NCBI GenBank assembly: GCA_044892525.1
Contig: CM097885.1
Location: 219,418,001 to 219,482,000, forward strand
Length of the DNA: 64,000 nt
Reading direction: 5' to 3'
Source of the DNA: Schmidtea polychroa
Taxonomy: Eukaryota
Made by a program: the position numbers and the translations under genes. The notes beneath the pieces are model-generated. The model was not told where the DNA came from and did not search any database. It worked only from the letters and a program-made list of their open reading frames with translations. Below, piece by piece: positions 3,085 to 16,562 of this stretch (positions are counted from its first letter, which is position 1; the number at the start of each line of letters is the position of its first letter).

Positions 3085-3417
3085 CTGGGCTTTTTCTAAA
3101 TCCTTTAAGCCGAATTGGAGCTGCTGCGATATCTTTTCAATTGTATGGCGGTTTAGTATTGTTTGGGGGGTTTCTCCTCTATGACACCCAGATGGTTGTA
3201 AGGCGGGCTGAGGAGCACCCTCCGCCTAATAAATTTTACAATTTCCAAAATTCAATACCCCTATACGATCCAATCAACAAGTAAGCCAAGCCGCTTTGAG
3301 AAAATTATCTATCATATAATAATCTTCTTTAGTTCAATGAGCATATTTCTGGACACTCTCAACATTTTCATTCGATTGGTCGCCATTTTGGGTATGGGAA
3401 ATAATAAAAAAAGATAA
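3085..3417 (+). CDS. GHITM: Last two exons (3085-3280, 3333-3417) of a GHITM/MICS1-like Bax inhibitor-1 family membrane protein
   Basis: Translation GLFLNP...LYGGLVLFGGFLLYDTQMVVRRAE...YDPIN|NSMSIFLDTLNIFIRLVAILGMGNNKKR* matches the GHITM C-terminus. A 52-nt GTAAG..TAG intron (3281-3332) keeps the frame, and an acceptor TTTTAG precedes 3085. Upstream exons were not found in the window. Confidence 0.85.
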
Positions 3418-4791
3418 ACTTTCGTCGTCGCCATGAACTATATATTCATTTCAGAGATCCATTAAAAATTCATTTGTTACTGCTATAATAACCTCTTAGT
3501 TGCTGTTGTTTGAAAATAAATCTATCGCATTGCGTTTTGTTTTACAGTTTTTACATTTACGAAATATCGTTTTGAATTAATTATTGCTATAATCTGGTTA
3601 GATATCACTAATCTTTTATACAAAGGAAACTAACTCTACCTGTCAGTGATTTTTATTCGCTATTTATAATAGTTGTTTTATTGGATTATAGAGAGAAAAA
3701 CAGAAATTTTCGATTTTATAAAATTAGCCGGAAACGTTATTATCGCTTTTAAACAAAGGAAAATAAAACGCAGATTGACTCAAACCGCATGGAATGATTG
3801 GGAGGTGTTTTCTACATTTTCAGTGGCAATAAGATTTAAACCGTAAAGGACTTTTACTATGGTACTTAAATTATGAGTGTAGATACAAATATCGATATTG
3901 CAACATTTTCTCTATTTGTCAGTTGGGTACTATGCCAATACGAGCCCTTCTACTCCTTTCAAGGTAGTGTTACATAATATGTAAATCTTTTTGGTTAAAG
4001 ATGTCGTTTTAAGTCTAAAAAGTAGATTTAAGCATCAGATTTTAAAGGTAAGCTATATTTAGAGTCATTTAAGTGTTGAACTTAAAGGTTGGAGGGTCAA
4101 AATTTAAAGTAAGTTACATGGGCCAAGATGGGTTAGGTGGTAGTCATTTTATGGTGGAAAATTTTGAGTTTATGAAAGTAGTTTAGGATCTAATTTTAAA
4201 AGTAAGCTTAATTTTGATGCATCAAAGGGTTTAAATGAATGGTTATAAGGATGTGTTGGTGTATGGTGGGGAAGAAAATTATTTACATACGATTTCCAGA
4301 CATACGAAGCCTTATCGTTCCGCTTAGACACCCCCCTTGCATACCCCTAATGATCATACAAATATTCCCACGCGTGAGCCCGTGGTGATGTTCCACGTTG
4401 GTGCTGCCCCACGGGTCGGAAGAGCTTAGCAGGTGAGCCCCTACCTTAGGACTACTCCTAACCCCTCCTCGGTTCGGATTCCATGGTGCCTTAGAAGGAC
4501 TCACCCTTATTCATGCATAAATCTCGGTCCGATCCTGATCCAAGGGAACGACCGTTAGCCTAATTACTTTCCTTTCGCAACGCTATTACATTTATCCTCG
4601 AAACCGAACATATGAAAACTTTATAAAACAGAACCAAACAGAAAAATATATTAACACCGAAAACGAAAATGAAAATACATCATTACACCTGTTAGTACAA
4701 CATCATACGAACAATTAGGATGCACAGTATTGGCGAAGTTTATCAGTCAATTTACGACTCGAAGTACAATCGAGATCAATCGTAAGCCGTT

Positions 4792-5403
4792 TTAGCCAAA
4801 GTTTTCTCCGTCGGCAATTATCTCGTCGATATCGACAGGTAATCTACAGTCTGATATAAATTTGATACCGCTGGCTGGGACAATGCGGAAGACTTCTTTC
4901 GAGGGAATTGAGTGAGTGGTTGATATTTCTTTAATCTTCGAGTGTGCCGCTGATAACGACGTTTCGAGTGCTGCCATTGCATCACGGCGTTTTTGATTTT
5001 TCTCCGCCCTGGTATGTCGCTTTCGTTTTCGCGTTGACGGATTGGTTTCGGTCGATGATGTTGTGACTGGCGCTACGAGAACTGGGGCCAGAATTGGGTC
5101 CGATGGGTCGCCTTTCACTGGTAGGTAGCCCGACAGCAGCGGAGCTGGGATGGGCGGCAGATGCGAGCCGTGCCCTTGACAATTTGAAGTGGACGAAGTA
5201 GATGGCTGGTAATGGAGAGGAAAAACGTTCGATCCATCCAAGACGGGATATTCGCGTACCCGCTTAGCTAATTCTGCCTCCGTGTAGACCTTATGGAGGG
5301 CTTCTGACTGTGCCTTTATTGTGAGCCTTTGACAGCGGCTCTCTTCCAGCAGGCTGTCCTATCAGTGCTCTAATCTGAGGACCTTAGTCCTTTCCTCCTT
5401 CAT
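4792..5403 (-). CDS. 3' part of a split GC-richer ORF (ORF-A), possibly the N-terminal region of a Penelope-like ORF
   Basis: The frame is open from 5295 to 4792 (HKVYTEAELAKRVREYPVLDGSNVF...RKRKRHTRAEKNQKRR...IKFISDCRLPVDIDEIIADGENFG*). The last motif resembles the V.NLS..L....LL.KG.NF motif of PLE N-termini. This copy of the repeated part has TGA TAG at EH**DSLL. Confidence 0.45.
5296..5403. repeat. 108-bp direct repeat, second copy at 10051-10158
   Basis: GAGGGCTTCTGACTG...TTTCCTCCTTCAT occurs at both sites; 104/108 identical by manual alignment. Confidence 0.95.
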
Positions 5404-5589
5404 ATTATTTTTAAAAGCACACTTGTGGATTATATAGATTTAATATTTTATGAAAAAAAGGTTGATGTTGATGAAGTTCGTAAAGCATTGATGGAATTGT
5501 ATAAAGATATTCTCTCAACAAAAGTTTCTTTTGATATCCGAGTATTGGTGCCAGATGGTGCTCAGAAGAATAAAGTCTTATTTTTTTAA
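5401..5589 (+). pseudogene. C-terminal ORF fragment, possibly a Polinton packaging ATPase tail
   Basis: Open frame HIIFKSTLVDYIDLIFYEKKVDVDEVRKALMELYKDILSTKVSFDIRVLVPDGAQKNKVLFF*, with no start, lies directly upstream of the Polinton membrane-protein gene. The similarity to A32/FtsK-like ATPase tails is weak. Confidence 0.3.
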
Positions 5590-5597
5590 TTATTAAA

Positions 5598-6191
5598 ATG
5601 GAAGAAGTAAGAGAAGAAAAAATTTATCCAGAATTGAGATCATCAAGATATTATTCTTCCAAGTCCTCGGCTCCCACAGAACTTGAAATTATGAGAGTAA
5701 AAGAATTTAAATCAGAAACATTACATTTACAAGATTTATTAAAACATTATAAAAAAATTAAGAATAGATGGAATAAAGGGAATACAGTTTTAAAAGTTAT
5801 AGGTTATTCTTTAGGATTTACATCTGCAATATTAACAGTTATTTTACCTATAACTTTACCAGTTTTAACAATAGCACCTGTAATACTTGGAAGTATTTCT
5901 GTAGCTGATGGTTTCTTGACTGAAATAGTTTCATTATCTTATACTTCTAAAAAGAAAAGTTTATATCGTGAAGTTTGTTTATCAATAGAATTAGGAATCT
6001 CTAAATTATTTTTATTTCAATTAAAAGCTTTGGAAGATGGAATCTTAACTGATGATGAAATAATGAAATCAAATCAAATAATACAAGATATTAAAAATAA
6101 TATTAATAGATTAAAAAGTGCTAATGTTATAACTAATGAATATTCTAAAAAAATTAAACGGGAGAAATGGTTAAAGAATTCTTATTTATAA
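5598..6191 (+). CDS. Conserved Polinton/adintovirus small membrane protein (PW/gasderminX-like), 197 aa
   Basis: ATG start and intact frame. Pattern: IYPEL..SAP, Y.K.K.RW, central hydrophobic hairpin (GFTSAILTVILP..PVILGSISVA), then KALEDGILTDDE. This pattern is typical of the ORF found near pPolB in animal Polintons. Confidence 0.7.
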   Translation: MEEVREEKIYPELRSSRYYSSKSSAPTELEIMRVKEFKSETLHLQDLLKHYKKIKNRWNKGNTVLKVIGYSLGFTSAILTVILPITLPVLTIAPVILGSISVADGFLTEIVSLSYTSKKKSLYREVCLSIELGISKLFLFQLKALEDGILTDDEIMKSNQIIQDIKNNINRLKSANVITNEYSKKIKREKWLKNSYL

Positions 6192-6392
6192 AATGGGTGT
6201 ATTTTTAAAAAAGTAGATCAGGTTGCTATAGTTGCTTAAATTAATTGTCGACATTTTATTATTAAAAAATTAAATATCGCTGGTTTCAGTTATGGTTGAA
6301 AGCCAACCTATGAATCATTAATTTATGATCTTTAAATTCTTTATCACTTAGACCTTTTATATATTCAGGATCAGTATTAAAATATTTAAGTT

Positions 6393-9300
6393 CTAAACAT
6401 ATAGGATTAAAAACTTGAGAATATAAAGGCTTCTCGATTTCTCTCCCGAGATAAATGATTTCAACATTATAAATATCAAGATCAGTAATTTTGTATCATA
6501 TAACTTATTCAACTTTTCTAGATTTTTTATTATCGGTATTAAATTATTTCCTATAGGAAGAGTTGTCTTTAAATCACTTAGGATGAATCTCTTATCATCA
6601 TAATTTGATAATGATACTTTTTGAGATTCTATCAAGTGAATATCATGGTTTTCGCTTTTAATCTGATGCACTTCATCAATTTTATCTTTATGATTTGGAT
6701 TCAATGTATCTATATAATCTTGATGAGAAAGATTCTTTGCAACGGATTTCTGTATTCCTTTACATCTGTTATCCTTTACAGGTTTTTCTTCTTGTCCCTC
6801 TGGTCCTTTAGGGAATATAGGATATTTAAATGAAATAATTTCCTCTTTTTCTGGGGTTTTAAATATAATTTCTCGGGTTATAAATTCAGGGTTTTTAAAT
6901 GTTTCGTATGAATATTGTTTAGCACGAATAAATATTCCATTTTCTATAGGAGTAAAAGTTTTTTCATCTTTAAATGAAAATAATTCTCCAGTTGAATTTA
7001 TTAAATTTGAAAGTATAGGATTTTCAGCTATATCTCTTTGTAAATCATGAGTTCTTATTGTTAAAAACATTGAATCTGTATCCATTGCATGCATTGATAT
7101 ATTAGAACCATATATAGGTTGTAAGATGTTATAATATGTTTCATACATTTGTAATTTTGAAAGTTCTAAAATTGAAAACCCTATAAATATTGGTTTGTTG
7201 TATGTTTTCTCAAAACTCTTTAGTTCTATTGCAGTAAGACTTTCAGAAAATACTTGTGCGTTTTTAAATGTAGGCTTTCCTAGCATACGATTATAACGCT
7301 TAATATCTTTGGCAGTATTAGTTAGGAGTTCAATATGAGTATATTTATCAACATTCTCCATTGTCTTCCCAAAGACTGAATTGTTTAAAAGTTTATAATT
7401 ATTATCTTTAAAAAGGTTACCTTCTCTTTTTGCAATGTTTCGACATCTAATGTTCTCCTCGATAAAAGCTTTCATAAATGGCCTCTGTTTAAATCTTATG
7501 ACACTATGAACTTTTTTTAATATCATACATCGTGAAAGATAAAATTGGAGGAGTCTATAGTGACAAAGATAAAACCTTCGATCTGTTTGATCACAAAGAA
7601 GTTTCATTGTTGGGGGTTTATCTTGTGAGATTTGCCATTCAGAAAGTTCGTTGATATCAATCTTTCTTCTTACAGGAGCTAATGGGAAATATCTTGTTCC
7701 TGATTTTATATCATCTGGATATAATAAGTCACATTCTACAAAGTAACCTATTGGATAATCTTTAGGTGTTGAAAGTATTTCTTTTATAAGTTCTTTTGAT
7801 GATTCTATTTCAATGAAATCACCCATTGGTAAATATTGAGTCATAATTCCTGAATATAAAGCTGTTGCATCTATATAAAGTATAAATATAGGATTTTTCA
7901 TTGTTTCTAATATTTCTTTTAATTCCTCATTGTTAATTTTCATATATGGATCATCAGGGTGTTTAGAGAGTCTTCGGCTAGTAGTTATTGCATTTCTAGC
8001 TTTTATTTCTCTATTCCCCATTACTGAAGAGACTCCTCCTCTAATGTTTGTTTTAATTTGGTTAAACATATCGAGGTTAGTTAAAAGATCTATAATTTTA
8101 TCACCTTCTTCTATATTTGAAGTCCAAATGGTATATAATAAAGTATCCCAAGCTAAAGAGGGTGCTGTTATATAATTGTAAGGTTTAAGAACAAAAGATT
8201 TTGTAAATTCTTCAAAGCAATCTGCTAGAATATAAACATCCAAGGATAAATACATACTTGTATATTCTCCTAAAGTTTTACACTTGAATAATTCCCACAT
8301 TTTATTTGCTCGAAAATATTCTTGATCTGTAATATGATATTTTTGAAGTTGTGAAGAGAAATCTTCTTGGCTAGGAAGACTTGTTTCATTATATTTTTCA
8401 AACGAGTCAACATAGTCATAAGGATATATTCCTTTTGCTAAGCACGTAGGATATTCTTCTGGAGGAATATTATTTTTTTCCAAGAATTCTCGAGTGATTT
8501 TGAAATTTTCTGGTTTCATTGTTTTTGCTACTGCATCTAGAGACATTTGGAGAAAGTTTAACGAGTCTATAAATTTTAATTTTCCATATTCAACTGATTT
8601 ATATTTTTCCTTTGTAAGTCCTATAACTTTGAAAGAGTTTTTAGCATTTTCTGCTAAATGTTTAATAAATAGATGTATGTCATAACCAAAAAGATTATGA
8701 AATATAACAGGTACAAATTTAGGAGTATGACAATTAAGATTGCAATTTTTATGAGCTGCTCCTCGATAATTATTTTCCTTTTTTAAATGATCATGATCGG
8801 GGACTTTTATGTTTGAAGATTGTCTTTCATGAAACATTCTTTGTTCTTCTTCTTCAATAGTTTCATTATTTGGAGGTTCCTCAAGGAGTTGATCCTCAAA
8901 TGGTTGTTTACACATCCAACAATTTGAAGAATTTTCATATTCTTCCCATTGTTCGGTTGAAAGGTTTATTTCATATTTTGTTTTTAATACTTTAAATATT
9001 TCATGTTCTAGATCATTTATACTTTTAGTAAAATGATTTAAAACATCTTCTGAAGTTCCTTGAAATGTATATTCTCTAGATTCTATGAGTTCAGGATAAT
9101 TACTTTTAAATAATAGTTTATAAGCAGAAGGTAATTGTTTAGTTTTTTTAACACTATTAGGTTTATTTCTTTTTCTTAGAAAGGCTTTCATCCTCTCTGG
9201 TTTCATCTTCTCTCCTGAGGAGTTCCATGAATCCATGAGTTTATTTTTTTCTATTATTTTTAAATATTGGTTAACCAAATCTTGTTTACGATTTATAGAT

Positions 9301-9731
9301 TCAAAGTCTCCATAAACCACTCCTACTGTTTGTAGTAAATTTGAAAAGTTTTTAAAATTCATCTTGGGATCTGTAGGCATGTTAATTAAAGCTGGTTCAT
9401 CTTTTTCACAAAATCTTGTATGTTTAATCATAGAGTTTTTAGTTGTTGAATAATGAAGACATCTTTTACATGTTCCTCCTCCACTAGTTGGATTCTCTGG
9501 TGATGTAAAAGCTTGAAAGTTTTTTATTAAAACATAATGTTGATTATTTTGTTGTTCCAAGATTAAAAGATATATCTCCCTAGTGTTATCCTGGGGTTCA
9601 TTATCTCTAACTTCATAATCTGAAATATAAATTGGAATAATTTCTCTGCTATTAACATGTTTCCCTTTAACACGTTCATAAATATTAATTTTAAGATTAT
9701 TTAAACTTTCTACAAGATTATTTAAAATTTT
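6393..9731 (-). CDS. Protein-primed family B DNA polymerase (Polinton/Maverick pPolB); frame open for 1112 codons, native start missing
   Basis: Motifs: CKRC..H..C finger; CWMC..DHDH..YRGAAH.NCN (endonuclease VII-like); PVIFHNLFGYD and FIDSLNFL exonuclease motifs; KGIYPYDY; IRGG; YIDATALY; KLLNNSVFGK; MDTDSMF; KQY; KGI; DDKR. No internal stops. I translated the frame upstream of 9560 to a TAA at 9734-9732. Confidence 0.96.
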   Translation of the reverse strand, partial: KILNNLVESLNNLKINIYERVKGKHVNSREIIPIYISDYEVRDNEPQDNTREIYLLILEQQNNQHYVLIKNFQAFTSPENPTSGGGTCKRCLHYSTTKNSMIKHTRFCEKDEPALINMPTDPKMNFKNFSNLLQTVGVVYGDFESINRKQDLVNQYLKIIEKNKLMDSWNSSGEKMKPERMKAFLRKRNKPNSVKKTKQLPSAYKLLFKSNYPELIESREYTFQGTSEDVLNHFTKSINDLEHEIFKVLKTKYEINLSTEQWEEYENSSNCWMCKQPFEDQLLEEPPNNETIEEEEQRMFHERQSSNIKVPDHDHLKKENNYRGAAHKNCNLNCHTPKFVPVIFHNLFGYDIHLFIKHLAENAKNSFKVIGLTKEKYKSVEYGKLKFIDSLNFLQMSLDAVAKTMKPENFKITREFLEKNNIPPEEYPTCLAKGIYPYDYVDSFEKYNETSLPSQEDFSSQLQKYHITDQEYFRANKMWELFKCKTLGEYTSMYLSLDVYILADCFEEFTKSFVLKPYNYITAPSLAWDTLLYTIWTSNIEEGDKIIDLLTNLDMFNQIKTNIRGGVSSVMGNREIKARNAITTSRRLSKHPDDPYMKINNEELKEILETMKNPIFILYIDATALYSGIMTQYLPMGDFIEIESSKELIKEILSTPKDYPIGYFVECDLLYPDDIKSGTRYFPLAPVRRKIDINELSEWQISQDKPPTMKLLCDQTDRRFYLCHYRLLQFYLSRCMILKKVHSVIRFKQRPFMKAFIEENIRCRNIAKREGNLFKDNNYKLLNNSVFGKTMENVDKYTHIELLTNTAKDIKRYNRMLGKPTFKNAQVFSESLTAIELKSFEKTYNKPIFIGFSILELSKLQMYETYYNILQPIYGSNISMHAMDTDSMFLTIRTHDLQRDIAENPILSNLINSTGELFSFKDEKTFTPIENGIFIRAKQYSYETFKNPEFITREIIFKTPEKEEIISFKYPIFPKGPEGQEEKPVKDNRCKGIQKSVAKNLSHQDYIDTLNPNHKDKIDEVHQIKSENHDIHLIESQKVSLSNYDDKRFILSDLKTTLPIGNNLIPIIKNLEKLNKLYDTKLLILIFIMLKSFISGEKSRSLYILKFLILYV

Positions 9732-9798
9732 TTAAATTTATATAATTTAAAATTAATAATCTGATAAAGATCAACTCCGGAGTTTGATTGCGATCAAA

Positions 9799-10050
9799 AG
9801 TAGTGTGTATATAGCCCTATCCCAAATAGCCCTCTAACTTTTTCATAATGCCATTTTCTTTTCTATTCTCTTTTTAGTTTGAAGCTTTTGAGTTTGAGGC
9901 TTTAAAGATTAAGGGTGGTTGTTGTTTAAAATATGGGGTTAAAATACTATAAAAGCATAGGTTTTATGTTGTTTTTCTAATGGTTTAAGCGTAATGGAGG
10001 TATGTTTTTGTTTGGAGGGCTGTTTGGGTTGGGTATATATACACACTACT
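9799..10050. repeat. 252-bp cassette bounded by imperfect inverted repeats starting AGTAGTGTGTATATA
   Basis: Left arm AGTAGTGTGTATATAGCCCTATCCCAAATAGCCCTC versus right arm (reverse complement) AGTAGTGTGTATATATACCCAACCCAAACAGCCCTC: 31/36 identical. Confidence 0.85.
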
Positions 10051-10308
10051 GAGGGCTTCTGACTGTGCCTTTATTGTGAGCCTTTGACAGCGGCTCTCTT
10101 CCAGCAGGCTGTCCCTACAGTGCTCTAATCTGAGGATCTTAGTCCTTTCCTCCTTCATTTGTGGCGGGGAGAACCACGTGCCTTCATAAAGGTCTATGCG
10201 CTTCTTTAGAGCCCCAATATATAAGTGAAGTTGAGCAATATCCGCGTTTTTGTCGGCACAAGAAAAACACGGGCGAAGTTCTTTAGCCTTGTTGGATGGG
10301 GTAGTCAT
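9985..10308 (-). CDS. 5' part of split ORF-A (86 native codons, then read-through into the Polinton terminus)
   Basis: MTTPSNKAKELRPCFSCADK...RLTIKAQSEAL; codons 51-86 are the 108-bp repeat. After 10051 the frame runs into AGTAGT terminal sequence. Confidence 0.5.
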   Translation of the reverse strand: MTTPSNKAKELRPCFSCADKNADIAQLHLYIGALKKRIDLYEGTWFSPPQMKEERTKILRLEHCRDSLLEESRCQRLTIKAQSEALSSVYIYPTQTALQTKTYLHYA

Positions 10309-10789
10309 CTAGAAATTTATTAATATATTCAGAAGCAGTCGCAACACTCATTTGCGTATCATTTACGATTTAACCCCTAGGCTTAACGATCTCATTCATC
10401 ATACCACTTTACGCAACCCTCAAACAACTCTTTCCTATATCTCAGCACTTCACATTCATTCCGTTACTAACCGTTCAGATCAAATTATCTACTAATAATA
10501 ATTTAGAAAAGAAAACGGGGAAAATATTAAATTCAGATTACTCGACGTAAAATCAACATTTAATTTCAGGTTAGACAGTCCTCTCCATTGTTACTCTCTT
10601 TGGTTATTTGTTATGGTGTATTTTAACGTTGTTATGTTCCGAAAATCAATTAAACTCTAATTCCTAGTATAGTGATTTTGTAGATTTGTGCATGCCTGGT
10701 GGTCGAAATTTAGGGGGATTTATAATTATTTGTACGATGTTAATTGCAATCCAGGTTGAACAATATTCGAATCATATTATATAATAATA

Positions 10790-11300
10790 CTTTAGAAATT
10801 AGATTATGGATTTTTGTAAAACGCGCTGCACTCGTCGTCATAGCGACGCCTACTCGTGTGTGCCTGTGTATCATAGTTAATTTCTGCTATGTGGATCAGT
10901 GTGTCTCGTCGTGTTCCTCCGGACTCATACCTGTATTGAGCTATCGTCTGTTTATATGGATCTAGAAAATTTTCGTGTCTGTTTGCGGTGCGGGATACGA
11001 CATACCTCCTCGCTGCTACACACTGTATCATTATTCTAAGTGATTGCAAAACACGATTACGAAATGATGACGTCATGGAATAATCTTACTAACTGGTTTG
11101 ATTTGTCGTTCCACTAGTATGAATTTAGCTATGGGGTGTATAAGTATATGTAATTACGAGGCACAGTGTTTATTACTCCTATCAGAAACTTTATGAGTAG
11201 CTGTCTTAGACGGTGTGCTACAAGTCCGAAGAGTGAGCGAACTGGAATTATTAATCTAATTTTTCTGGGATACGATTGTCTCAAGACAATATCTACCTAC
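10790..11300 (-). pseudogene. Possible highly decayed reverse transcriptase (PLE-like)
   Basis: Scattered minus-strand pieces RKIRLIIPVRSLFGLVAHRLRQLL and RVGVAMTTSAARF echo the PLE RT motifs R.I.S...LA..L and GVAMG. Many stops. Confidence 0.25.
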
Positions 11301-11599
11301 GCCTTGGCTAAACAACTCGTTATGGACAATAATTTGTTATCATCTCTATCAGACTTTCGTCGATCGTCTAACTCGGTTAATTACAGTCCGACTGGATCTC
11401 ATTTATCGATAAACTGATAACTCTGGCAGCAGCTTCTATCGTCTCTACCGTAAGTGTTCTGATAATTCCCCATGATTTGTTTACATTAACTTCAGAAAAC
11501 GATGCTTATCAGTAACTCAAAAGTCAACACGGTAGACTAAAAGTACATCGTAAATGGATTTTGGCGCTAATGCTCTGGCGATCTAAATCAGATGACGTC

Positions 11600-12905
11600 T
11601 CAAAAGGCAGTATATTGCAGAAATTCATTGGATTTATTCGTGCGTTGTGAATCACTTTGTATAAGAAAAAAAGTATTGATGAAGAAAAGTCGTATTGGAA
11701 TAACGATGAGATTGAAGATACAGAATGCTATGATGATTGCCTTGGTTTATCAAATGATATTGATATTGAGAATGTTGATTTGAACTATCACGATCTGCTT
11801 CAAACATCTCGAAAACTTGTCAAATTTATAAAGAACTCAACAGTTCGCAATAATGTTTTCCTAACAAAAAACAAAGCTTTGACAGGCCGCAACAGTGAAT
11901 TATATCTGGATATTAAGACGCGTTGGAATTCAATTCCTACCATGTTGGATTCAATTATAAAATCAGAATTGGCTATTCGAGAAACGTTAACTGAATTTAA
12001 TGCAATATATCAAATAGATTCTGTTGATTTTGATGCTCTTAATAATCTTCTTTGTGCTATGGAACCGATTAAACTTGCTGTTGAACGCTTAAGTCAAGAT
12101 GATGCGACATTAGTAAGTGCTGAAATAATATTAGAGTTTATGTTCAAGAAACTTTCGATGATTAATAGTGAAATAAGTCAAGATCTGCATGATAACTTAA
12201 AGCAACGAATCGATGAAAGAATAAATAAAGATGTTATGAATCTTTTGAAAAGTCTCAAAGATTCATCAGTTGTTCCATCAGAAACAACATTAACATTTGC
12301 TGGACGTTTAGCTTCACGCATATTTGAATTTGATGATGGCGATGATATACGTGGTTCTACCCAAGAAGAATTTGAAAACACCAATCTTTCGCTAAAAGAA
12401 GAACTTAATATGCTTTTATATATGGATCAAACCCCGAAAGTACTTGGAGTAGATTTTAAATGGCTTAAGTCAGAATTCACTTTGTATAAGAATACTGGAC
12501 AACGAACGGAAAATCTTCAAAAACTTTACAATGCACTTCTTAGCATCAAACCAACATCGACTGACATTGAGCGTGTATTCTCAATTTGCACAAATTTTTG
12601 CACTAAAATTAGATCACGCTTATCAGATGATGCTCTTAAAGCTTTGGTTTTCTTGAAATTTTACTATAAAAAATAAATAAGTTTTCTGATGTTATATGAA
12701 TTAAGTTGTTATAAAAGATAATAAATATTTTCCAAGATATTAATAAATTGAAAAAAAATAAATATATACATTTTCAGTATTTTTTAAATATTAAAATTAT
12801 GGGAAAATTGAAAAAACAGTAAAAACAGCTAATATCAGCTGTTTTTTCGAAAATAAAAAACAGTAACAGCTGTTTTTTGAAAACCGCTGTTTTTGTAAAA
12901 CCCTA
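11600..12905 (+). mobile_element. 5'-truncated hAT transposon: transposase C-terminal half (ORF 11657-12676) plus right terminus
   Basis: Motifs LDIKTRWNS, EPIKLAVERL and the hAT dimerisation motif LLSIKPTSTDIERVFS..RSRLSD. AAAAACAG/CTGTTTTT subterminal repeats end in AAAACCCTA at 12905. Confidence 0.9.
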
Positions 12906-14237
12906 GTTGTGATCGACAAGGTCCTATTCCAATCACTCTGATCGACAAGCTGATGATCAAGAAAGTATTCCTCTATCTATGTAGATTTTCCCAAACCAGC
13001 ACTAATGTAAACACAACTTTCAAATACGAATCGTCTCTATTTCGAAACCTAAATCGTCTCAGTGGCTGTTGGAAATTTCGATGCGACAGAATACAACAAT
13101 GGAGTACCCTACGAACAATCGCAATCGGTGAAGGAAATTCGACTTCTCAATCTACTGAGTCTCATCACCCCTCATGACACACCCAAGAAGGCATTCATTG
13201 CTGCCGCCATTCTTGCACCGTCATGAGGGACCAATCAACTCCTTCGCATTCAATAAAATGATAATTTGCATATAATTCATAATGATCAAAATATGTTTAC
13301 GAAATAATGAAGAAATATAATTTACCCGGCGACCCTATCATTTGAGCTCCAAGCATGATGTCTCTCTCCGTTAAATCACTCGCGTAATCAGCGCATTGGC
13401 GGGCCTCTCTTCTCCCAGTATCGTATTCTCTGAGAACCCAATGTCCTTTCAACATCTTCTGGATGCATATCAGGAAAATTCCGCGTGGCTATTCCCTCTC
13501 ATTCGCATCATACTTGAAGTTACCAAATGGTACAGTCGCCGGCACCATGAAGAAAGCTGTTTTCTTTTAAATAAATTTATTTTCTGAAATTTATCATTAT
13601 TATCAATTATATGACAATGTTAACTTAATTTCATTTATTCAATTTTCCAAAATTCGTTTAAAGGTAAGTTTTTGAATTTAAGTAATTTTTAGGACTTGAA
13701 TTTTGATTTTATATAATTATGATATCATTATTCAAGTTCTTAAATATTACTGTTAGTCAGCATTTATAATATTGATAATATATAACATTGATAATTAAAT
13801 TTCAGGTGTTTTTTTTATGGTATTTTATTTGGATTTATTTGGATTTATTTCGTAAAAACTTTTAACATTCGGAACATTAAATTTTTGCACACAGGTAAGT
13901 TTGTGTGTTGCTATAATATAATTTTATCGATTTTTTTTAGATTATAGAAACTCTTATACACCTAACCGCGAAATATAACATTATCTATAATCTAAAAAAA
14001 ATCAATAAATATATATTATAGGAACACACAAACTTACCTGTGTGTAGAAATTTAATGCTGCGAAATTTAACATATTTATTATAGGAATCAAAAAAGTGAG
14101 AGAAAATAATTAAGCATACAAGCACAGCACACATAATGAAAAATACATACAAAATTAAGTAAAGTGTTTTTCATGCGAAATATACATTGATTAACATATA
14201 ATTAACATATCAATATTTTCAAATTATTTAAAAAGTT

Positions 14238-14560
14238 ATGTACAAAAAAACTTTTGAATCAGACTCCGACTGATCTACCTTGAGCTTTAGGGAAAAAGAA
14301 GTAAATACATCGTAAGATTTAATTATAAAATAATTTAGAATATAAAATTTCTTTAGATTTACAGATATTGAAGAAGATCCTTCGACATCTTTGAATTTGC
14401 AGGAAAAAAATCGCAAATCGTAAATTTTAATAAATTATTTTAACAAATTAATATTTTCATAGAATTACAGAAATAGACAAATTTCGAACGAAGATTTAAA
14501 AAACTTAAAAAATATTTTATCCATTCTTTACTAAATGTCTTTAAAAAATAAATGTTTGGT
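14238..14560 (+). pseudogene. Disabled paralog of the spliced mini-gene at 15143
   Basis: ATG TAC AAA...GAC TGA gives an early stop. Introns 14312-14356 and 14420-14462 lie at positions equivalent to the 15143 copy. Confidence 0.5.
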
Positions 14561-15142
14561 GATTACTTTACTTATTTATAATTATAAAAATATCTAACTT
14601 AGATTTTTACGAAAAAAATCCAAATAAATCCAAATAAAATACCATAAAATTCCTAAAAAAACACGTGAAATTTAATTATCAATGTTATATATTATCAATA
14701 TTATAAATGCTGACTAACAGTAATATTTAAGAACTTGAATAATGATCTCATAATTATATAAAATCAAAATTCAAGTCCTAAAAATTACTTCAATTCAAAA
14801 ACTTACCTTAAAACGATTTTTGAAAAATTGAAAAAATGAAATTAAGTTAACATTGTCATATACACCTAAATCCACAATATAAGAGTTTCTATAATCTAAA
14901 AAAAAATCGATAAAATTATATTATAGCAACACACAAACTTACCTGTGTGCAAAAATTTATTGTTCCGAATGTTAAAAGTTTTATTATAGGAATTGAGAAA
15001 GTGACAGAAAAATAATTTTACATACAAACACAGAACACATAATATAAAATACACGCAAATTTAATGTAGCTTTTTTTATTCCGAAAGTAGAGAGTCATTA
15101 ACATACTGTTAACATATCATTAATTTAAAATTATTAAAATTC

Positions 15143-15531
15143 ATGGCTGAAAAAAATTTGGATTTTGAATCTGACAACTCAACTTTGAGTTTTCGAGAAA
15201 TGGACGACAAAACATCGTAAGGTCTATTTATAAATATTTTTAGATTTTCAGATATTTCTTTGGAGACATTTCCATTTTGCGAAGGTGAAGATCTGACAAT
15301 GTAAGAATTTTTTTATTTAATTACAAATAATTAAAATATTTTACAGCATATCAGATATTTCTAGTCAAACGCCTTTGTGTGAAGATATTCAACAAGTTCC
15401 ATCGACATCTTTGGAATTGAAGAAAAAAATTCGAAAATCGTAAATTTTAATAACTTATTTAAAAAAAATAATATTTTCAAAGAATTTCAGAAAATGACAA
15501 AATCCGTCTACATCGTCAAAGAGGCTATTAA
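15143..15531 (+). CDS. Four-exon 90-aa acidic/Ser-rich protein of unknown function inside a TIR element
   Basis: Exons 15143-15216, 15244-15300, 15347-15439, 15483-15531. GT-AG introns of 27, 46 and 43 nt, all phase 2, splice to an open frame MAEKNLDFESDNSTLSFREMDDKTSFSDISLETFPFCEGEDLTIISDISSQTPLCEDIQQVPSTSLELKKKIRKSISENDKIRLHRQRGY*. Confidence 0.6.
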
Positions 15532-16562
15532 AAATGAGCTGGAGAAAGAAGATAACAAAAACTTAAAAAACAATTTTATCCATATACGCCTAAATGTCTT
15601 AAAAAAATAAATTTGTTTGGTGATTATTTTATTTCTTTTTAGTTAAAAATATATATAACTTACATTTTATTGAAATAATTCCAAATTCATAACATCATAA
15701 AATACATAAAAAAGCACCTGAAATTTAATTATCAATATATTATAAATGCTGATTACAAGTAATATTTAAGAGCTTGAATAATGATCTCATAATTATATAA
15801 AATCAAAATTCAAGCCTTAAAATATACTTAAATTTAAAAAACTTACTTCTAAAACCATAAATAAAATTGAATTGAGAATGAAAAAATGAAATAAACATTC
15901 TCATAAATGGTGAGTCATCGATTGATGAACACACCAACATGCATTATAGAGACTTTTAACATGTGGAAACGGGTGTAATTGGTGACTCACCTCAGGTGGT
16001 GTGCACACCAACGTATATTATAGACAATGTTAACTTTCGCGGTTAGGTGTATTGTGGATTTAGGTGTATACTAATTTTCTTACTGTCTCGTCCAATCAGG
16101 ATTAAGTAGTTGTGCAGATTGCACTTTTTTCTATTTTAATTGTTGTTTTTATGTTTTATTTTTAATTTATTTTGTTTTATTTTCCTTATTTAATTATTAA
16201 TTATGTTTTTCTTAATTTATTTTATCTGCCTAATCCTGACGGCCATCTTATTTGTATCTTTTCTGATTTTATTTTAATTTTTAATCTAAAAGAATTCCAT
16301 TTTCGCTATTTTTCACTTAATTATTATTTCTCATCTAATTTCCATTTAGTTACTGTTTTTAATCTACTTTGATTTCTCATCGTATTTTCAATTCAATCTA
16401 TTTTTTTGTCCTCGTTTTTAAATTAATTACTACTTTTAATCTACTTTAATTTTAATTATTTTAAATTAATTGCTACTTTTGTTGGATGATGAGGGTAGAC
16501 TCATCACCACATTCACCCTCAACAAATATTATAAGACGGGGCCAGGAAAATATAGGGTCAAT

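Follow-up and report, generated by a model that had tools for sequence, protein, structure and literature searches.

A young, truncated Polinton copy with a long open polymerase frame in Schmidtea polychroa, and the abundant family from which it comes

Does a long polymerase frame without stops, standing in a fragment only one third the length of the element that it belongs to, point to a protein kept by selection, or to an ordinary insertion too young to have decayed? The question is raised by positions 5404 to 10050 of a 64,000-nucleotide stretch of the Schmidtea polychroa genome (contig CM097885.1 of assembly GCA_044892525.1, positions 219,418,001 to 219,482,000, forward strand), the whole of which was analysed and is called the window here. 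The open reading frames of the window include 1112 codons of a protein-primed B-family DNA polymerase (pPolB) without a stop on the minus strand, at 6393-9731. A preliminary description, made from the letters of the window, saw in this a minimal Polinton with a lesion-free pPolB and a membrane-protein gene, either very recently inserted or with a polymerase under selection that possibly replicates mini-elements in trans. The fragment and its flanks are made up as follows.

4254..5403, no strand assigned: left part of a host repeat (multi-copy, TGTTGG start, minus-strand orphan ORF), which holds the inserted fragment
5296..5403, plus strand: left copy of a 108-bp duplication of the host repeat, in which all four differences between the two copies lie
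5402-5403: two bases common to the host duplication and the Polinton sequence at the left junction
5404..5589, plus strand: about 60 codons from the 3' end of the family's coiled-coil gene of 325-341 aa, the remainder of which is missing together with all genes beyond
5598..6191, plus strand: predicted membrane protein of 197 aa, intact, a standard gene of the family, without a Pfam family
6393..9710, minus strand: remnant of pPolB, with Exo and palm kept and the N-terminal region and native C-terminus lost
6489..6493, minus strand: private one-base deletion that causes a frameshift
9711..9728, no strand assigned: 18-base filler at a deletion of ~1.65 kb, 13 bases of which repeat 9693-9705
9729..10050, no strand assigned: outer 322 bases of one terminal inverted repeat (TIR), with an AGT-repeat terminus at its end
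9799..9837, plus strand: inverted inner copy of the terminus inside the TIR, a feature of the family and not a second end
10051..10158, plus strand: right copy of the 108-bp host duplication, which agrees with the host family at the four variant sites
10159..11647, no strand assigned: right part of the host repeat

Both boundaries of the preliminary description, 5404 and 10050, are correct, and the AGT-repeat terminus that it mentions is present, reading ...ACTACT at 10050. Elsewhere in the window, a fragment of a hAT transposase (PF05699, frame of 341 codons) breaks the host repeat at ~11648-12905, the repeat resuming near 12909; at 13600-16050 there is a cluster of direct and inverted repeats, 80-210 bases long and nested in one another, which are likely miniature transposons; and ~3100-3420 presumably holds exons, separated by a short intron, of a host gene like those for GHITM/Bax-inhibitor membrane proteins.

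The fragment comes from an abundant young family of adintovirus-type Polintons with hundreds of copies in the genome. A 267-residue piece of the polymerase, searched against its own genome, matches at 94-100% amino-acid identity in all 144 scored places (of 9036 candidates); these sisters are ranked by similarity to a stop-free stretch, and the sample therefore favours open frames. The exact 24-base terminus occurs 491 times genome-wide, its reversed control not once, and the first 100 listed termini include 25 facing pairs, 21 of which span 13.2-24.1 kb. A 6-bp target site duplication (TSD) flanks seven of the eight pairs fetched, the terminal repeat measures ~950 bases in both of the pairs compared, and the element is ~15 kb long, the window fragment (~4.6 kb) being one third of it. 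Sister copies with capsid and integrase, and with the ATPase as well, were sought and found: the DJR major capsid protein (PF21738) in all three sister ORFs tested, the rve integrase (PF00665) in two (E 7.9e-12 and 9.4e-13) and the A32 packaging ATPase (PF04665) in the one tested. Candidates for the maturation protease and the penton are sister ORFs of fitting size, with a weak peptidase match only (E 0.038); Pfam has no penton family. The family also possesses a PLA2-like domain and a weak protein-X-like match. PF03175 scores above cut-off in the window and in a sister, and of 7992 candidates 2060 are relatives of pPolB at E 1e-30 or better, the best of them unnamed (54% and 51%); a PDB sequence search with the polymerase gave no match below E 0.3.

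Several further observations concern the family. In the integrase ORF (sisters L036:3495-4880 and L048:4956-6413) rve is preceded by the PLA2-like domain (PF08398), and that domain in turn by a zinc finger-like motif at the N-terminus. Sisters differ from their nearest neighbour by 0.4-2.4% in pPolB (loci L031-L048) and form mosaic subfamilies, and near-identical pPolB pairs in inverted orientation stand ~30 kb apart at two places (C3:15252830 and 15285486; C2:70310718 and 70340831). In one variant of the terminal repeat (window 9799-10050) the terminus recurs in inverted form 252 bases from the end; other variants have this inner copy deleted.

Measured against this family, the window copy is not a complete Polinton, since it is without a second TIR, a 6-bp TSD, integrase, capsid, ATPase and a whole pPolB. 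The terminal repeat is represented by a single terminus with 322 of ~950 bases, and neither the rest of the window nor the 10 kb preceding it yielded another Polinton part. The 197-aa ORF is open, just as the preliminary description had it, and has a hydrophobic stretch at about residues 64-113, but of the 20 loci covering it 16 have it open as well. Five homologues of its product were found out of 286 candidates, the Atlas neighbours (with a homologue as query) are all unnamed, and a search for its Pfam family found none.

The polymerase had been called lesion-free. Its 1112 stop-free codons stand, the long minus-strand frame matches PF03175 in the Pfam search (E 2e-19), and all of the Exo and palm motifs tested are retained; both of its ends are nevertheless damaged. 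Sister frames have 1441-1476 codons, with a long N-terminal region preceding Exo and palm, and in alignment residue 8 of the window frame falls on residue 336 of a sister frame of 1452 codons. About 335 N-terminal codons and the start codon are gone through the deletion of ~1.65 kb at 9710/9729, where, of 17 sisters in which both anchors are present, 16 carry 1627-1710 extra bases (25 loci examined, eight without an anchor); the same deletion took two thirds of the terminal repeat. The earliest in-frame ATG with a long frame behind it is now at 9431, and 1012 codons follow from there. A sister has Cys and His motifs that, judged by pattern alone, would mark a vOTU-like domain; the Cys motif, upstream of the retained His motif, lies in the deleted N-terminal part, and Pfam gave no OTU match. 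The lost region is predicted to have comprised the terminal protein and the vOTU protease, needed for protein priming, if its parts are placed as in the pPolB architecture of PMC11161782.

At the other end, one base is deleted near 6490 in the assembled sequence, where an assembly error is possible. This deletion is absent from all 42 sisters covering the site (51 examined, nine not reaching it) and swaps the last ~67 residues for 31 unrelated ones, the window frame ending 48 codons past position 6540 as against 84 codons in 32 of the 51 sisters. In contigs from two public runs the family has one base more near 6490; the public-run contigs (four runs) cover the family, no listed piece of them puts the window junctions to the test, and their depth gives no copy number. 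An insert of 20 residues near 8820-8892 was considered as a further lesion and rejected, because a subfamily has it too: of 40 scored places, 16 besides the window match at 97-100%.

We conclude, with a probability of about 0.92, that the stretch belongs to the ~15-kb Polinton family as one of hundreds of copies, that it is young and truncated, and that it is likely dead, because its polymerase has neither a start nor the N-terminal region and ends in a frameshift.

How the copy was truncated can be approached from its junctions. The internal junction is whole only at the window locus among 40 scored of 1279 candidates, and the left junction likewise among 40 scored of 1000 candidates; a "minimal element" is hard to reconcile with a structure seen once among the scored junction matches. 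The fragment is bracketed by a direct repeat of 108 bases (5296-5403 and 10051-10158), absent from the preliminary description, and the terminus is joined cleanly at 10050/10051. That the 108-base repeat is native to the host repeat or to the Polinton was rejected, and the 108 bases are single in 11 of 11 host-repeat copies. In the filler at 9710/9729 the 13-base templated match was reached by 15 of 5000 shuffles. The host repeat itself, which has more than 1000 candidates in the genome, is composed of mosaic haplotype blocks. One block switches between 5284 and 5293, at most 12 bases from the duplication's left edge, and a second switch lies in the left flank near 4890; a single host copy comes closest to the left flank at 4900-5295 (94% over 4900-5403), and other copies come closest to the duplication and the right flank.

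Some features of the host repeat deserve mention in their own right. To judge from its TG start only, it may be a long LTR. A sister host repeat (L062:1523-2284) has an orphan ORF of 253 aa, and no Pfam family was found for the host-repeat ORF. Another copy of the repeat (L065:2309-3252) is cut by an integrase-like sequence, which we take to resemble a different Polinton family.

We propose that the family spreads by pPolB replication and integrase-mediated insertion with 6-bp target duplications, and that one copy would have entered the host repeat at 10050/10051. Error-prone repair of a break may then have cut ~10 kb from one side, with 108 duplicated host bases being joined to the Polinton interior via the two shared bases, and the repair would also have cut ~1.65 kb inside the element and left the templated filler there. 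Microhomology, a templated filler and a duplication are what microhomology-mediated, templated repair commonly leaves behind. The simplest history of the locus, we infer, begins with insertion and continues with deletion during repair.

It is possible, though we hold it only tentatively, that an already deleted and broken extrachromosomal Polinton was integrated by one end, in which case integrase would have joined the terminus at 10050/10051 and host repair the broken end, duplicating the 108 host bases in one event. The clean joint of the terminus would be expected from such an event, as would a duplication that begins exactly at the terminus in bases that every host copy examined has once, and neither the window nor the preceding 10 kb holds a further piece of the element. 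Retroviruses are known to integrate by one end with long duplications; our literature search for such events found nothing. A single sequence cannot separate this course of events from deletion after insertion, however, and the four derived differences of the left copy, with the haplotype switch at 5284-5293, fit template switching equally well.

We consider it rather unlikely that the locus is a junction of two copies of the host repeat, one of them bearing the Polinton, brought together by ectopic recombination or by deletion between them. The differing nearest relatives of the two flanks and the position of the switch, so close to the edge of the duplication, are what such a junction would leave. 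Against this, the host family is mosaic throughout and switches again near 4890, so the coincidence may be due to chance; the far end of the host repeat is interrupted, which hides the target duplications of the host repeat. 

The open frame is accounted for by the youth of the copy. Private changes of the window copy relative to 31 sisters amount to 11 silent and 16 replacement (dN/dS 0.38); after 19 closer sisters were added (20 insert-bearing subfamily members fetched, one dropped for low coverage) they fall to 3 silent and 2 replacement (dN/dS 0.18) over ~950 codons, and closer sisters may exist beyond this sample. Both counts mask the codons at 8790-8915. Selection on the window copy, as it might have been read from the count of 11 and 16, is for this reason rejected, most of those changes being history of a lineage that the first sample had missed. 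The five remaining substitutions lie within the range of 3-25 seen in 51 copies. Private changes of 50 sisters are 88 silent, 312 replacement and 27 stop, with dN/dS 0.94; if 6% of changes make a stop, five changes leave the frame free of stops with a probability of 0.73. The frame of the window is open because only ~5 substitutions have occurred since the copy left the active lineage, and it has much company: frames of at least 1112 codons are found in 55 of 143 sisters, and of at least 1400 codons in 24 of 143. The pairwise dN/dS of 0.32-0.51 between the window and the 31 sisters bears witness to selection in the lineage that replicates.

A recent Polinton insertion, the first of the two readings offered by the preliminary description, is borne out by the five private substitutions and the hundreds of young sisters. 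The second, a selected polymerase helping in trans, does not agree with a frame that has no start codon, terminal-protein region or Cys motif and a frameshifted C-terminus, in a family where those 24 sisters have at least 1400 codons. The preliminary description had itself held that many near-identical full-length copies with neutral divergence would make this an ordinary young insertion, and such copies, with the dN/dS of 0.94 in 50 sisters, are what we found. It had also set the open polymerase against the broken transposons around it, a weak contrast, since the window has other open frames like those of transposons, 326-490 codons long.

Selection could still be argued in another form, with the polymerase co-opted: a transcribed copy would yield an Exo-palm protein of 1012 aa from the ATG at 9431, lacking the terminal protein and the protease, ending in a new C-terminus and primed by the host. 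The kept catalytic motifs, the availability of that ATG and the ratio of 3 silent to 2 replacement changes agree with it, and the lean towards silent changes is the one result that speaks against a dead copy. It consists of five changes, though, too few to carry weight (binomial p 0.065; Fisher against the sisters p 0.077); the C-terminal frameshift is private to this copy, the native upstream region is deleted, and youth alone accounts for the open frame. Unlike a domesticated gene, the copy has hundreds of young sisters, a private frameshift and a handful of private changes that do not reach significance. We regard co-option as very improbable; if true, it would be a case of a viral replicase turned host enzyme.

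That the fragment is a minimal non-autonomous or helper element, replicating itself or mini-elements in trans, we find scarcely credible, since the three short two-ended derivatives that might suggest it (232, 185 and 610 bases, L109-L111, among the 25 pairs) differ in length and are all without a 6-bp duplication, the inner terminus continues into the long repeat at 20 of 20 loci examined (of 104 matches), so that the 252-base AGTAGT...ACTACT unit was rejected as a free mini-element, and the window copy, unlike a member of a mini-element family, has one end only, no terminal-protein region and junctions each found at one of 40 scored places.

The window copy is itself one decayed copy and matters little, its junctions being a small example of the destruction of a Polinton by break repair. 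The lesson is that, in a young repeat, the absence of stops from a long frame should not be taken for selection. Whether animal Polintons still form particles is a question better put to the family, with its hundreds of near-identical, capsid-encoding copies.

Among known systems, the family agrees with the definition of the Polintons/Mavericks, for which PMC10748475 gives lengths of 13-25 kb, TIRs of 100-1500 bp and TSDs of 5-8 bp: it has pPolB, rve integrase, A32 ATPase, DJR capsid, TIRs of ~950 bases, 6-bp TSDs and a length of ~15 kb, whereas the window copy, at ~4.6 kb, has one partial TIR and is without integrase, capsid, ATPase and 6-bp TSD. Polintons are also known, and silenced by piRNA, in one planarian, according to PMC8532177. 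The family also fits adintoviruses as PMC8502044 defines them. Of these, the alpha adintoviruses combine OTU with a PolB of the PF03175 type and have PLA2X, in which PLA2 is joined to protein X. The family resembles them in its PF03175 match, in putative vOTU-like Cys and His motifs, recognised in sisters by pattern only, and in its PLA2-like domain; it differs in that this domain lies N-terminal of rve in the integrase ORF and not with protein X. Named pPolB relatives are only 33-37% identical. The pPolB architecture TP-vOTU-Exo-Palm, as set out in PMC11161782, is matched by the sister frames of 1441-1476 codons with their long N-terminal region, which the window copy has lost together with the Cys motif while keeping the Exo and palm that follow.
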